Of a DNA stretch of 15,155 bases, positions 1 through 11,882 are shown piece after piece (the first letter of the stretch is position 1; the number at the start of each line of letters is the position of its first letter). The notes below the pieces were generated by a model. The model saw only the letters and a program-made list of their open reading frames with translations, had not been told where the DNA came from and searched no databases. Both the position numbers and the translations under genes were made by a program. Source of the stretch: a virus; UHGV virus genome UHGV-0151496; one strand, 5' to 3'.

Positions 1-1005
1 TTAATCCCCCGTGGACATTGCGTGGACACTCACGCCACCTTTCAGCGGATTAAGGGCCACCGCATCCTGCAGGTAATCCGGTGCAAAATGTGCATATGCC
101 ATTGTTTGCTGAATGGTTGCGTGGCCAAGAATCTTCTGAAGCGCAATAATGTTTCCTCCGTTCATCACAAAATGGCTGGCGAACGTATGCCGCAGCACAT
201 GTGCAGCCTGGCCTTTTGGCAAATCGGGCTTAACTCTTTTCAGCGCCAAGCAGAATTCCCGGTACTTCACCTCAAACAAGCCGCCTGTTTCTCTGGTTTT
301 GATCGCCTCACAAACTGCCTGCGAAATTGGCACTGTTCTCTTTCGGCCATTTTTGGTTTCAAGAAACGTTACACGGTTATGAACTATCTGTTCACCACGA
401 AGCTTACAGGCTTCACTCCAGCGCGCCCCCGTGCTTAAACACAAAAGCGCAACACGCCAGTAATCGCCCTCCAGTGTATCGAGCAATAACGCCACTTCCT
501 TCTGGGACAGGAAAGCCATTTCTCGTGGAGATACATAAAGAATAGAAATTCCCCTTACCGGATGTTCTGCATCCCAGAGGCCTATTTTCTTCAGTACGGT
601 AAACATTCCGGATAACCGATTCATGTATCTGTTAGCAGATGACGGTTTCAATCCATCAGCTATCTTTTGAGAACGCCACGCGATAATTTTTAGCTTATCA
701 AGATCCACAGCCTGCATATCAGCGCCAAGCTCATTGATTATGTTGCGCAGTTGTTTTCGGTCTTCTTCCGCCTTACGCCTGTGCTGGCCGTGATACATCC
801 ACCACAACTCAAGCAAATCATTTAGCGTTCGACGATCACGGTAGCCCTGTATATATTCCCGCTTTTCAGCGTTAGCCATGATGTAGCGTTCAGTGGCCAC
901 CGCTACCGATTTTTTGTCAAATACCTTACGCACGCGCTTTCCCTTGCGTCCGTTCGGCCTGATGTCCAGCAAATAACGACCATCTTCGAGCTTCTTAATC
1001 GACAT
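1..1005 (-). CDS. int: Tyrosine site-specific integrase, P2 Int-like
   Basis: ORF track 1..1020 begins with TTG; the first ATG is codon 6 (plus-strand 'cat' at 1003-1005), preceded on the minus strand by GGAGGG 7 nt upstream. N-terminus MSIKKLEDGRY..DIRPNGR and C-terminal HVLRHTFASHFVMNGGNIIALQKILGH..YAHF (R-H-R-Y catalytic region) resemble P2 Int as recalled. Stop codon is nt 1-3. Confidence 0.92.
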   Translation of the reverse strand: MSIKKLEDGRYLLDIRPNGRKGKRVRKVFDKKSVAVATERYIMANAEKREYIQGYRDRRTLNDLLELWWMYHGQHRRKAEEDRKQLRNIINELGADMQAVDLDKLKIIAWRSQKIADGLKPSSANRYMNRLSGMFTVLKKIGLWDAEHPVRGISILYVSPREMAFLSQKEVALLLDTLEGDYWRVALLCLSTGARWSEACKLRGEQIVHNRVTFLETKNGRKRTVPISQAVCEAIKTRETGGLFEVKYREFCLALKRVKPDLPKGQAAHVLRHTFASHFVMNGGNIIALQKILGHATIQQTMAYAHFAPDYLQDAVALNPLKGGVSVHAMSTGD

Positions 1006-1101
1006 TGCGAAGCCCTCCAATGAACCGCTCTACAATTTCTCCAGCTTCTTTCCAGCAATAATCAGACCAGACAAAAAGCAGGTCTAACCAGTTTTCTGGC
1101 C

Positions 1102-1689
1102 TCAGCGGGATAATTTTTGGATTGTTTTGGTTGAAACCCGATCGCCCTCCGAATCGCAGGAGCCATCAAGAGAGAGAGCCGGAGAAATCTGCCCAACCTC
1201 CGGCATCGTTTCATCTGTTGATAACCAGTAAGCGTATTTCTTAAATTTAGGATGTTTCGTAACCTTAAGTAAGGCCCCCTCTGTTACTTGCTTCCCTCTC
1301 GCCTCATAGTTAGTTACCGTTCCATAAGGTAGCCCAACACAATCCGCAAACTCCTGGCGGGTCATCCCTTCAGCTTCACGCATCAAGCGAAATTTTGCCC
1401 CAAGCCCAGATGCCACTTCAGACTCATCATCTACTAACGGAGTAGGCGAAACTTGCCCATTTTCAGCAGCCGAATGCCCAGTCATAAGCCAAAGCGCGTA
1501 TTTCTTGAACCTTTCAACCTGTAAAACTCGCTCAACCAACTCTGCTCTGGCAGGTTGATGCCCGGTTTCATATTTCTGAATAGTATTGAGCGGAATTCCT
1601 GTAATATCAGAGAATTGACGCCTACTTAACTCCTCCGCCTCTCTCATCATCATGAGTCTTTGCGAATAGTCTATTGACACGTTTCTCAT
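1102..1689 (-). CDS. Immunity repressor (C/CI-like) with two tandem XRE-type helix-turn-helix modules
   Basis: Same strand as int and divergent from cox, the P2 position of gene C. ORF track extends to a TTG at 1737; the first ATG is at 1687-1689 with AAGGAG upstream. Two internal repeats: REAEELSRRQFSDITGIPLNTIQKYETG...KYALWLMTG and REAEGMTRQEFADCVGLPYGTVTNYEARG...KYAYWLSTD. Confidence 0.75.
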   Translation of the reverse strand: MRNVSIDYSQRLMMMREAEELSRRQFSDITGIPLNTIQKYETGHQPARAELVERVLQVERFKKYALWLMTGHSAAENGQVSPTPLVDDESEVASGLGAKFRLMREAEGMTRQEFADCVGLPYGTVTNYEARGKQVTEGALLKVTKHPKFKKYAYWLSTDETMPEVGQISPALSLDGSCDSEGDRVSTKTIQKLSR

Positions 1690-1740
1690 ATGAGAAATAT
1701 ACTCCTTTCTAAATTGAGAAATGTTAAAACACCTCAATTG

Positions 1741-1780
1741 GCCTAAGTAAGCCTATATAAGCCATTTTGAGCCATTCGAA
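1741..1780. promoter_or_regulatory. Candidate operator/divergent promoter region: four phased 10-bp direct repeats each starting GCC
   Basis: gcctaagtaa gcctatataa gccattttga gccattcgaa read directly in the C-cox intergenic region; includes a tatataa -10-like element. Direct-repeat operators are known for P2-type C repressors. Confidence 0.5.
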
Positions 1781-1801
1781 CGAATTAGGGAGATTACCAC
1801 A

Positions 1802-2089
1802 ATGAGCGAATCTGAGCTTGGGGGGTTCATTCAGGTAGCACCATATCCACTTGAAGCGGTGCCATATCAACTATTCGCCAAGATGATCGGCCGCAAGGAA
1901 TCCACAGTCAGAACCATGATTGACGCAGCAAAGCTACCGACAATTGACTTTGTGAAACCAGGTTCAGTAAAGACGCGTGCATCAGAAAACTGGGTATATC
2001 TGCCAGCATTTAACGAAGGCATGCGCAAAGCGTTTTTTGAGCAACCGAAAGAACGCCGCGATGCATGGTTGTTGTGGTTGGGGCTTTAG
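1802..2089 (+). CDS. cox: Cox-like excisionase / early-operon repressor (P2 Cox family)
   Basis: 95 aa, divergent from the repressor, GGGAGA 8 nt upstream of the ATG. Motifs PYQLFAKMIG..TVRTMID..KLPTIDF and WVYLPAFN..RRDAWLLWLGL resemble P2 Cox as I recall it. Confidence 0.8.
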   Translation: MSESELGGFIQVAPYPLEAVPYQLFAKMIGRKESTVRTMIDAAKLPTIDFVKPGSVKTRASENWVYLPAFNEGMRKAFFEQPKERRDAWLLWLGL

Positions 2090-4400: not shown

Positions 4401-4612
4401 TGGCTTTTGAGGTGTACAAGGTTGTCCGTTTCACAGTTGATGGTCGCAACTATGACGTGGATGAGCGCCTGATAGACATGGACAGAACCGCCCCATCACG
4501 CACTGACCCAAACGTCCACTATATCTGGTTTAAGGACGGGGAAACCCATTTTCGCGCCACTGACGTGACGCACGTAAATCTCATCCGGCAAACACGGGAG
4601 AAACAGCAATGA
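4400..4612 (+). CDS. Hypothetical early protein
   Basis: 70-aa ORF; start overlaps the upstream stop (TAATG) and its stop overlaps the next start (ATGA). Confidence 0.5.
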   Translation: MAFEVYKVVRFTVDGRNYDVDERLIDMDRTAPSRTDPNVHYIWFKDGETHFRATDVTHVNLIRQTREKQQ

Positions 4613-8771: not shown

Positions 8772-9731
8772 ATGAAAATTTGTATCGACGACGGCTCCAC
8801 CAACATCAAGCTGGCATGGACTGAGAACGGCGAACGCCGCAACGCCATCAGCCCGAACAGCTTCAAGTCGGAATGGTCTGCGCCGTTCGGCGGCTCGCAG
8901 CCCGCGAACTACATGCTTGATGGCGTGCGCTATGGTTTTGATCCGGTCAGCGATCGCTTTGTCCGGACGACCGACACGCAATACCAGTACAGCGATGTGA
9001 ATGTCATTGCCATTCATCATGCGCTGGTCAAATCAGGTATTACGCCACAGGAAGTGGATGTGGTTGTCACCCTGCCACTGAGCGAGTATTTCGACACAAA
9101 CGCACAGCCGGATATGACCAACATCAACCGCAAAAAAGCGAACGTCATGCGCCCGGTGGAGTACCAGAACGGTGAGGCATTCACTATCCGTAACGTGCGG
9201 GTTATGCCTGAATCCATTCCGGCAGGCTTTAAGGCACTGGCTGACATGAGTCCGTTTGAATCCCTGCTGATTGTGGATTTGGGCGGTACCACGCTGGATG
9301 TGGCAAAGGTTCAGGGGCAACTGGCAGGTATCAGCCAGGTATTTTGCGATCCACACGTAGGCGTTTCACTGATGACCGATGCCGTGCTGTCGGTGATGGC
9401 CACCAACGGTATGCGTACCAGCCACCACATCGCCAGTACCATTATCGAACATCGCCACGATGAAGCCTGGCTGCGCCAGCACATCCACAATGACGCGCAT
9501 TACGCCAGCCTGATGGCGGTTATTCGTGAAAAGGAAGAAACACTGAAACAACGCGTGATCCGCGCACTGGCGGGCTTTTCGGGATACGGTCGGGTGATGA
9601 TTGTCGGTGGAGGGGCGGAGATTGTGGCTCCGGCGGTACATGACGCTTACGGCCTCAACGCAAACATTCACACAACACCGGAGCCACAGTTTGCCCTGGT
9701 TAATGGACTCCATGACATGAACAGGGAGTGA
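8772..9731 (+). CDS. parM: Actin-like plasmid segregation ATPase ParM/StbA
   Basis: N-terminus MKICIDDGSTNIKLAW, SPNSFKSEW, YSDVNVIAIHHAL, VMPESIPAGF, LIVDLGGTTLDV, VMIVGGGAEI and C-terminal ALVNGL closely resemble plasmid R1/R100 ParM (StbA) as I recall it. AAGGAA precedes the ATG. Confidence 0.9.
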   Translation: MKICIDDGSTNIKLAWTENGERRNAISPNSFKSEWSAPFGGSQPANYMLDGVRYGFDPVSDRFVRTTDTQYQYSDVNVIAIHHALVKSGITPQEVDVVVTLPLSEYFDTNAQPDMTNINRKKANVMRPVEYQNGEAFTIRNVRVMPESIPAGFKALADMSPFESLLIVDLGGTTLDVAKVQGQLAGISQVFCDPHVGVSLMTDAVLSVMATNGMRTSHHIASTIIEHRHDEAWLRQHIHNDAHYASLMAVIREKEETLKQRVIRALAGFSGYGRVMIVGGGAEIVAPAVHDAYGLNANIHTTPEPQFALVNGLHDMNRE

Positions 9732-10228: not shown

Positions 10229-11374
10229 ATGAACATTCAACAGCGTATAGCAGAACGCTTGGTTCAGGCCAGAAACGACGCGGGAATGAGTGCAAGCGCC
10301 GTCGCAGATGCGATCGGTGTTGTTCGTCAAACCTACAGTAAGTTTGAGCAGGCGCTAGGCGTCCCAAGCGTTACCCAACTCATCATGCTCTGCAAGATTT
10401 TCGATAAGCCTATCGGGTATTTTTATGAGCAAGATGATGGCGAGTTCCGTTTTGCAATGCGAGCAGATAGTCCGGATTTGTTGGATGCTAAACTTCGCAA
10501 TGAGTTGATTGAAAAGTTAAAAAATATCAATGCAATTGAGGAAGCTGCTGATGCTAATTTGCCAGAAGATCTTCCTAACTCAATGCCTATTTTTACCGCC
10601 AAAGCAGAAGATTTGCGAAGAGTCGAAGATAAGGCTATGGAAGAACGTTTCCGTCTTGGTATAGGAAACGCTACTTGCGTTGGTGACATTGTAGCCATTT
10701 TGGAAGCATCGGATATTCGAGTAATCCCGTTCAATCGCGAAGAAACCGATAAAGGGATGGTATTCGGATTTTCTGCGTTTTCGAACAAATACGGTACCGC
10801 GATTTATGTAAATGTTCACGACAGCATTTCAATAGAACGTCAAATCTTCAGTATTTGCCATGAATATGCTCATCTTATCTTCCACCGTGATGAGTATGAT
10901 GGCCCTGCTAAAAGCTATAAAACTAATGGCAAAGCAATTTCACCGGAAGAAAAAGTTGCTAATCACTTTGCTGCTTGTTTTTTGGTACCAGAAAGTGCAT
11001 TGCGAAAACAATTCGTCATGCAAGGTGGTGGATGGGCGTATGAGGAAACCGTCCTTAGACTAAAAAGCATTTTCAGAGTATCAGCCACTTGCATCATCGA
11101 TCGTCTTAGTAAATGTAATTTAATTAATCAACAAAACACTAGATACCTATGGGCAACCGCCAATCGTAAAGGTTGGAAGAGACACGAGCCAAATCCCATT
11201 AGGGAAGCACTAAATTATAAAGGTCGCCTAACCGTCTTATCGCGTAAAGCATGGGAAGCCGGTTCCGCGTCGGAAACCTTCATATCTGAACTTTTAGAAT
11301 TAGACAGAAAAGCTCTCAGCAATCTTCTGGATGAATGGTACGACGAACAGGAGGCCGGAGAGGATGCCGTTTGA
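10229..11374 (+). CDS. Fused XRE-family HTH + ImmA/IrrE (COG2856/DUF955-type) zinc metallopeptidase
   Basis: N-terminal HTH (SASAVADAIGVVRQTYSKFEQALGVPSVTQL) and central HExxH motif (SICHEYAHLIFH) in the context typical of ImmA/IrrE peptidases. 381 aa, AT-rich codon usage unlike neighbouring phage genes. Confidence 0.8.
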   Translation: MNIQQRIAERLVQARNDAGMSASAVADAIGVVRQTYSKFEQALGVPSVTQLIMLCKIFDKPIGYFYEQDDGEFRFAMRADSPDLLDAKLRNELIEKLKNINAIEEAADANLPEDLPNSMPIFTAKAEDLRRVEDKAMEERFRLGIGNATCVGDIVAILEASDIRVIPFNREETDKGMVFGFSAFSNKYGTAIYVNVHDSISIERQIFSICHEYAHLIFHRDEYDGPAKSYKTNGKAISPEEKVANHFAACFLVPESALRKQFVMQGGGWAYEETVLRLKSIFRVSATCIIDRLSKCNLINQQNTRYLWATANRKGWKRHEPNPIREALNYKGRLTVLSRKAWEAGSASETFISELLELDRKALSNLLDEWYDEQEAGEDAV

Positions 11375-11882
11375 ATGCCCCAGATGTGTTATCGATACGA
11401 ATGTACTGTCTGATTTTTACGAAGGTAAATGCTTAGATCTTATCTGGCAAATTTACCCGGGTGGTGTGTGGATTGACCCCTATGTCTGCGAGGAACTAAA
11501 AGCTAAATACAATCTTGATGTTCAGGAACAGCTTACACGCCTGCAACTTCCATACAATTTCACCAATGATTACGAACCTGAACATTTTATTGAAATGGCT
11601 GAGATAAAAAATCGCAGGAGAGCATTGAAGTATGCGGACATAAGCTGCGTTGTTAACGCGAGAATACATGATGCAACATGTCTTTCGGCGGATAATGCGG
11701 TTTATAAAACGTGTGCGGAACGCGGTGTAAAAGCCGCCCGCCACGGAGGGCTACTCCAAGAGGCTGTGCGCAGGAGACTTATCCACAAACATCAAGCCTT
11801 AATGCATTTCCAATTTTTCCTAGATCGTGGGTTAACGATGAAATCTTCTGTTCGAGAACAGATTCTTGCCAGTTTCGAATGA
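11364..11882 (+). CDS. PIN-domain-like nuclease (VapC-like fold), candidate toxin/effector
   Basis: ATG at 11364 with AGGAGG 9 nt upstream (ORF track's 11331 start lacks an SD). VIDTNVLSDF near the N-terminus (PIN strand-1 Asp), acidic residue in VCEELK, then DISCVVNARIHDATCLSADNAVY resembling the PIN D..IAA.A / T.D motifs. Start lies 10 nt upstream of the peptidase stop. Confidence 0.6.
   Translation: MPFECPRCVIDTNVLSDFYEGKCLDLIWQIYPGGVWIDPYVCEELKAKYNLDVQEQLTRLQLPYNFTNDYEPEHFIEMAEIKNRRRALKYADISCVVNARIHDATCLSADNAVYKTCAERGVKAARHGGLLQEAVRRRLIHKHQALMHFQFFLDRGLTMKSSVREQILASFE

Follow-up and report, generated by a model that had tools for sequence, protein, structure and literature searches.

Phased GCC repeats in the repressor–cox spacer of a P2-like E. 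coli prophage as the probable core of a cox-box array

The spacer separating the divergent repressor and cox genes of a P2-like (P88/Xuanwuvirus-type) E. coli prophage carries four GCC triplets at exact 10-bp steps. Sequence comparison makes it probable that these repeats are the core of a P2-type array of cox boxes lying over the repressor promoter Pc, an array that probably consists of six 10-bp units, at 1725–1784. The argument is built on the repeat itself, on the homology of the neighboring Cox and repressor proteins, on a spacer layout resembling that of P2, and on the way the array stays with cox when the repressor changes. The window, i.e., the whole stretch of 15,155 nt analyzed here, is the left end of this prophage, and all positions are counted from its first letter.

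Organization of the switch region

From the left end of the prophage, the gene order is int, C repressor, a 112-bp spacer and cox, and the genes 3′ of cox form a typical P2-like early set, including a gpA-like origin nickase (PHROG matches). The features of this region, with their supporting evidence, are listed below.

1–1020, minus strand: P2-type tyrosine integrase (Pfam Phage_integrase and Int_N)
1102–1689, minus strand: immunity repressor, 195 aa, with two tandem P2-C-type HTH modules (Pfam and PDB matches)
1674–1703, plus strand: early promoter Pe, TTGACA–18 bp–TATACT, 11/12 matches (consensus promoter scan)
1682–1697: putative operator O1, perfect palindrome TTTCTCAT/ATGAGAAA (TTTCTCATATGAGAAA), in the Pe spacer and containing the repressor start codon
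1706–1721: putative operator O2, TTTCTAAATTGAGAAA, just 3′ of the Pe −10 and 24 bp from O1
1725–1784, plus strand (toward cox): putative cox-box array, six in-phase 10-bp units (consensus scan, family matrix, sharing among relatives)
1741–1780, plus strand: four 10-bp units each opening with GCC (direct reading; the only such run)
1754–1759, minus strand: candidate −10 of Pc, TATATA (positional homology with the annotated P2 record, where the Pc −10 is TATAAT)
1802–2089, plus strand: cox, 95 aa, winged-helix excisionase and, by homology, repressor of Pc (Pfam, PDB)

The initial annotation had located the repeats in the switch region between divergent repressor and cox genes, which is confirmed: the repressor start codon lies at 1689 on the minus strand and that of cox at 1802 on the plus strand, so that a P2-C-type repressor and cox diverge from the 112-bp spacer. 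The segment 1100–1810 is near-identical in 7 of 5426 complete E. coli genomes, with partial matches in 238, and the insertion site of the prophage adjoins pdxB. The early region also encodes a ParB-like partition protein (8772–9731) and an HTH plus metalloprotease (ImmA/IrrE-like) regulator (10229–11882), the latter with a partly overlapping downstream ORF (both from PHROG matches); these genes may be cargo or an anti-phage module.

The Cox protein matches the Pfam family Phage_Cox (PF10743, 1.3e-22, profile positions 5–87 of 87) as well as the P2 Cox structure, PDB 4lhf (3.5e-26). It is 100% identical to Cox of P88-like phages (Xuanwuvirus P884B11, PhiR44_2), 56% identical to P2 Cox and 41% identical to W-phi Cox. 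The contacts building the P2 filament have been assigned to M31, P38, W81, and W84, and its specificity has been linked to T25 (PMC3936717). All four filament residues are identical here (M39, P46, W89, W92). Among the residues with a role in DNA contact (PMC3936717), R29, D33, R51, K75, and R78 of P2 are kept; T25 is replaced by E (E33), R30 by T (T38) and R73 by Q, the first two being recognition-helix residues. This pattern fits a Cox that would form the same filament and read a somewhat different box, its specificity being probably shifted relative to P2.

On the other side of the spacer, the Pfam profiles HTH_3 and HTH_31 each match the repressor twice, and its N-terminal half matches the P2 C protein (PDB 2l49/2xcj, 4e-17).

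Early promoter and repressor operators

Pe is the only promoter-like site returned by the consensus scan of 1500–2000, and it drives cox and the early operon. Its −10 occupies 1698–1703, and its −35 overlaps the first repressor codons, as in the annotated P2 record. The −10 lies between two direct repeats of 22 nt, offset by 24 bp and each holding a 16-bp palindrome. The palindrome pattern of O1 and O2 is restricted to these two sites in the window, a count reached in 0 of 200 shuffles. Since they flank the Pe −10, in the same layout as in the annotated P2 record, the palindromes at 1682–1697 and 1706–1721 are operator candidates, and it is likely from their sequence and position that they are the operators of the repressor. 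They change whenever the repressor type changes in relatives, and phage Chuche, whose repressor matches the N-terminal module of the present one, carries identical palindromes. The two marks by which an operator may be recognized, namely repeats spanning the −10 or −35 of Pe and co-variation with the immunity type, were also looked for in the GCC array. The palindromes do span the −10, whereas the array only starts at 1741; the array is moreover common to three immunity types.

Two other repeats were noticed around the switch. A 14-nt inverted repeat, 13/14 complementary (TCTTTGCGAATAGT/ACTATTCGCCAAGA, 1657–1670 and 1870–1883), brackets the whole of it, with one arm in the first repressor codons and the other in cox, and extends to 1646–1654 and 1879–1887. 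Its rough chance is about 0.007 per 300-bp region; it is partly kept in relatives, one arm being altered in the loci L047 and L042. An 11-nt direct repeat (CCATATCCACT/CCATATCAACT, 1841–1851 and 1862–1872, 21 bp apart) lies in the 5′ part of cox and may be due to chance.

The phased repeats and their match to cox boxes

The stretch 1741–1780 reads GCCTAAGTAA GCCTATATAA GCCATTTTGA GCCATTCGAA, with GCC at 1741, 1751, 1761, and 1771. The four exactly phased 10-bp GCC repeats of the initial annotation are thus found both by direct reading and by a scan of the whole window, where they form the sole run of at least four identical trinucleotides at periods of 8–12. According to first-order Markov simulations, the chance of a phased run of any triplet at period 10 is 0.07 per 15-kb sequence, and 0.0014 in a 112-bp sequence of spacer composition. 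A chance origin of the GCC phasing at the location of the spacer is unlikely.

The core shared by the repeats is longer than GCC and can be written T(A/G/T)(A/G)GCC (TTGGCC, TAAGCC, TAAGCC, TGAGCC). Unit boundaries starting with GCC are arbitrary; when set against the cox boxes of P2, GCC becomes the 3′ end of each unit. The four are then extended by one in-phase unit on either side, TAAAACACC (1725) and TTCGAACGA (1775). The units of the putative array are, in order, TAAAACACC(T), CAATTGGCC(T), AAGTAAGCC(T), ATATAAGCC(A), TTTTGAGCC(A), and TTCGAACGA(A), with GCC as the 3′ core of units 2–5.

In P2, the cox-box consensus is TTAAA(G/C)NC(A/C), with at least six copies whose starts are 10–11 bp apart; the boxes overlap the −10 and −35 of Pc within a C–cox spacer of about 110 bp, and they are wrapped by a Cox filament containing one protomer per helical turn (PMC3936717). 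An array of this type is expected to show a Cox footprint of about 70 bp and a box-dependent repression of Pc. The six in-phase units match this consensus at 7/8, 4/8, 4/8, 6/8, 6/8, and 5/8 positions, respectively, the 7/8 match lying at 1725 and the two 6/8 matches at 1756 and 1766. Summed over four phased boxes, the score is 21, a value unsurpassed among about 30,000 positions (mean 9.9, sd 2.5) and 4.3 sd above the mean; a coding-region site at 4530 has an equal sum.

More distant relatives were also compared with the window. Seven Cox lineages, 51–56% identical, were considered: P2, the Enterobacter phage T5282H, the Klebsiella phage ST16-OXA48phi5.4 and the IMG/VR groups L054, L055, L060, and L062. 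Their spacers are no longer alignable. All seven nonetheless display three to four plus-strand boxes ending with AAGC(A/C), 9–10 bp apart, immediately 5′ of the cox ribosome-binding site. The consensus of these boxes, TTAAAAGCA, is in register with TTAAA(G/C)NC(A/C). A family matrix built solely from the boxes of these seven other lineages gives 4.8, 8.9, and 5.5 bits at 1745, 1755, and 1765 of the window. The phased sum is 19.1 bits, a value that 0.6% of dinucleotide-shuffled spacers attain and that no other part of the window reaches.

Close relatives and immunity types

The set used for close comparison comprises 47 loci with Cox 94–100% identical, taken from phage records, E. coli genomes, and IMG/VR, to which one locus at 74% (L051) was added. 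A Cox search of genome contigs yielded one locus, the set being otherwise supplied by viral contigs and the phage collection. The 47 relatives fall into three unrelated types of operator and repressor, with one repressor per type.

Immunity type A: operators identical to the palindromes of the window
Immunity type B: ATGCCATATCGGGCAT repeated twice, e.g., P88 and PhiR44_2
Immunity type C: GGATCATATGTGATC and GTTACATGTGATAC, e.g., Shae_phiSM

Left of about 1724, the sequence differs between types, whereas from there to the cox start codon it is common to all of them. The array thus travels with cox and not with the repressor. It is retained next to single-module repressors of the two other types (PhiR44_2/P88 and Shae_phiSM). 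The type B relatives (L001, L008–L025) lack exactly one 10-bp unit, corresponding to 1735–1744 of the window, and with it the first GCC (1741); the units that remain thereby stay in helical phase with a shared AAAACAC block beside O2. Across the relatives, L051 included, the three GCC triplets closest to cox vary little or not at all, and the first one is not conserved.

A fused two-module repressor

Comparison of the immunity types also sheds light on the repressor. Its 195 residues comprise two C modules, each with its full five helices, which belong to different immunity classes and are fused head to tail. The N-terminal module (type A) shares 66% identity with the C protein of phage Chuche, a phage with the palindromic operators found here. 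Identity reaches about 95% between the C-terminal module and the type B repressor that P88/PhiR44_2 encode as a free protein, with five differences in the last 99 codons and an identical HTH. A commoner sister lineage combines the same N-terminal module with a type C module at the same junction, again giving 195 aa throughout; E. coli contigs with this fusion number in the hundreds, and Citrobacter has it too. No report of fused C repressors of this type was found in a limited literature search.

Comparison of the C-terminal module with its free type B counterpart gives dS = 0.28 and dN = 0.022, a ratio of 0.08, which argues that the module is still under selection. AlphaFold2 predicts both five-helix modules with confidence and their mutual arrangement without (pTM 0.40, linker pLDDT below 50), and the model is compatible with an intramolecular pseudo-dimer as well as with intermolecular pairing. 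From its sequence, the fused repressor may confer dual immunity; alternatively, the C-terminal module may serve merely for oligomerization. A broader proposal, which we advance only tentatively, is that the GCC array belongs to a Cox–Pc cassette with its own specificity (core AAGCC) that would recombine just right of O2 (about 1722–1724) with at least three immunity cassettes, the one in the window encoding a fusion of two heteroimmune C proteins that could immunize the lysogen against two classes.

The att side

For P2, the annotated record shows a second Cox site, with the attP core on one side and the P′ arm sites on the other; the latter overlap int at its 3′ end. In the window, two arm-type repeats, GTGGACA, fall within the 3′ end of int, at 11–17 and 22–28. 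They match the arm-site consensus tgTGGaCa (PMC3448106), and the P2 P′ arm is found at the same place in its annotated record. Since the window begins at the int stop codon with these arm repeats, the attP core and any att-side Cox site would lie just to its left. E. coli AR_0085 carries a prophage of the same type (L005), and the att side was accordingly read there; homology to the host stops about 183 bp short of int. The int-proximal sequence is AGTATCGCC CTTTAAGCC GTTTCAGGC TATATAAAA, with three phased units, AGTATCGCC/CTTTAAGCC/TTTCAGGCT, directly beside the arm sites. This triple reaches p = 0.03–0.04 with a matrix from its own switch, 0.17–0.35 with the family matrix and 0.09 by local alignment to the switch. 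The power of the test is low, the P2 positive control, where binding is proven, being equally weak (p = 0.02 and 0.15). The same locus carries at 1343–1375, in the interval separating int from the junction on the pdxB side, an inverted repeat, GGCAATACTGAA and TTCAGTATCGCC with a 9-nt gap; it has no T run and is thus no obvious terminator.

A clearer picture emerges from T5282H (L064). Its switch array, GCAACCGCCAATATAAGCAGTTACAAGCCGAAATAAGCGC, recurs as GCAACAGCC, a gap and ATAAGCAGTTACAAGAAGGATAAAGCGC beside the arm sites (local alignment score 35, reached in 0 of 500 shuffles). The two copies, at 461–498 and about 1936–1975, are almost verbatim, and the Int arm-type repeats read GTGTAGACA and GATGTAGACA. 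Presence at both the switch and att is the dual location expected of a Cox target, and this duplication supports the view that the phased boxes are Cox targets in the family.

The repressor promoter and a possible mechanism

The hexamer TATATA, read leftward from 1759 to 1754, lies at the junction of units 3 and 4, and the −10 of the P2 Pc is likewise located at a box junction. By analogy, we infer that this hexamer is the −10 of Pc. In the consensus scan of 1500–2000, no minus-strand promoter passes, and the hexamer has no convincing −35 (TTCGAA at 1780–1775, with a 15-bp spacer). The P2 Pc is itself described as weak (PMC1904263). With predicted starts at about 1710 for Pe and 1747 for Pc, the two transcripts would overlap by about 37 nt, to be compared with about 35 nt for the P2 Pe and Pc transcripts (PMC1904263).

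The following scenario can be proposed. In a lysogen, the repressor would sit on the palindromes at 1682–1697 and 1706–1721, flanking the −10 of Pe. When Pe (1674–1703) fires, Cox (1802–2089) would be made. This small winged-helix protein would polymerize into a helical filament, with one protomer per helical turn docking on the direct repeats at about 1725–1784, each ending with (A/G)GCC. The filament would wrap the DNA and cover the weak leftward Pc (candidate −10 TATATA, 1759–1754). Transcription of the repressor and integrase genes would thereby be switched off, committing the phage to lytic growth.

Alternative explanations

The regular spacing could also be a relic of slippage, i.e., a 10-bp tandem duplication in an AT-rich promoter region, kept by recent ancestry, the region being then just Pc and the cox 5′ leader. 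The type B relatives differ by exactly one 10-bp unit, as replication slippage would give, and the window-wide chance of a phased triplet run (0.07) is not extreme. Moreover, the GCC columns are not clearly favored over their neighbors in the close relatives (mean minority count 1.08 versus 1.57), which are too similar for this comparison to separate them well. Such an origin is nevertheless unlikely, given that lineages whose Cox proteins are 51–56% identical and whose spacers cannot be aligned have retained phased boxes that agree in core and strand and in how far they lie from cox. In addition, the matrix from these distant lineages singles out the array in the window, T5282H repeats its array at att, and the homologous P2 boxes are footprinted Cox sites (PMC3936717).

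Another possibility would be an intrinsic bend, or a platform for host nucleoid proteins (IHF, Fis, H-NS), tuning Pe and Pc independently of Cox. GCC does alternate with AT-rich tracts every 10 bp. A GC/AT alternation in step with the helix is a classic signature of curved or easily wrapped DNA. Both Cox and C of P2 bend DNA (PMC3936717, PMC1904263). However, bendability is to be expected anyway of a target wrapped by Cox, so that it characterizes the array more than it competes with it as an explanation. The conservation of an (A/G)GC(A/C) core across lineages argues for base-specific reading, and we consider this explanation quite improbable. Neither a slippage relic nor an intrinsic bend explains the lineage-wide conservation of core, strand, and position.

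The initial annotation named two possible binders. Cox oligomers agree with the position, orientation, spacing, and core of the repeats and with their staying with cox. The other candidate, a two-HTH repressor binding cooperatively on one helix face, has little in its favor and is rejected here as very improbable. This repressor does have two HTH modules, the repeats do lie inside the switch spacer, and C repressors of the P2 family do bind direct repeats (PMC2995052). However, the same array accompanies single-module repressors of two other types, so that it stays with cox over three immunity types, and it is the sequence left of about 1724 that tracks the repressor. Better operators are present, namely the O1 and O2 palindromes, which flank the Pe −10 as in P2, occur nowhere else in the window and are shared by Chuche. 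The array begins 38 bp 3′ of the Pe −10, too far away for a direct block of Pe. Finally, the operator motif of the type from which the C-terminal module derives (ATGCCANATCGGGCA, type B) is absent from the spacer, the window containing only chance-level matches with three mismatches, all outside the spacer.

An RNA-level element in the cox leader of about 90 nt, or in the overlapping antisense transcripts, is extremely improbable and was rejected: the region is transcribed from Pe and probably antisense from Pc, but the fold predicted for 1710–1810 (−15.4 kcal/mol, z = −1.0) does not stand out from those of shuffled sequences, 1500–2100 has no Rfam hit at E up to 1, and the leader offers no GGC with which the GCC repeats could pair.

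Comparison with known phage switches

The closest counterpart of the proposed cox-box array is that of P2 (PMC3936717, AF063097). A Cox homolog (56% identical) is encoded next door, and the spacers measure 112 bp here and 114 bp in P2. The boxes are on the same strand and at the same distance from the cox start, with a spacing of one helical turn, about six units and an overlap with the position of the Pc −10, which is a candidate here. The remainder of the switch is also similar, with a Pe whose −10 is flanked by two repressor sites and whose −35 lies at the C start codon, Pc and the boxes, both putative here, occupying the cox-proximal half. In contrast, the core is (A/G)GCC here and (G/C)NC(A/C) in P2, single units match at only 4–7 of 8 positions, and Cox binding is putative in the present case. 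An att-side array is also not clearly recognizable in the phage type of the window.

In P2, the C operators O1 and O2 are found on either side of the Pe −10 as direct repeats of 8 bp, at a distance of 22 bp (PMC2995052, PMC1904263); their counterparts here are 24 bp apart. The P2 half-sites are non-palindromic, whereas each operator of the window is a 16-bp inverted repeat. The GCC repeats lie to one side of Pe without flanking it, and they stay the same when the repressor changes.

Two less closely related systems are worth considering. The Apl sites of coliphage 186, located between pR and pL (PMC7498355), are also helical-turn direct repeats between face-to-face promoters, bound by an excisionase of the Cox/Apl family that acts as a switch regulator and also binds at att. 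However, phage 186 has a repressor of the CI family and a cII gene, and Apl is only distantly related to the Cox studied here. The lambda Xis micro-filament on X1–X1.5–X2 (cited in PMC3936717) likewise involves a winged-helix directionality factor assembled head-to-tail on phased direct repeats, with DNA bending. It has no role at a lysis–lysogeny promoter, being confined to attR, and its DNA sites have no detectable sequence relationship to the present ones.

Implications for the P88/Xuanwuvirus group

A literature search on the P88/Xuanwuvirus switch returned nothing relevant, and no binding or transcript data for this phage group. The proposed array belongs to a known kind of phage switch element, and the picture of how a P2-type switch functions is unchanged by it. 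The fused two-module repressor is more unusual than the array and could repay experiment. For annotation purposes, the operators and promoters of a common E. coli prophage family can now be placed. If the array is confirmed, the P88/Xuanwuvirus group would join the few P2-like phages with a defined Cox target. It would also provide a second natural Cox recognition sequence, with an AAGCC core and with E33 and T38 in place of T25 and R30 of P2, for probing how the Cox filament reads DNA.
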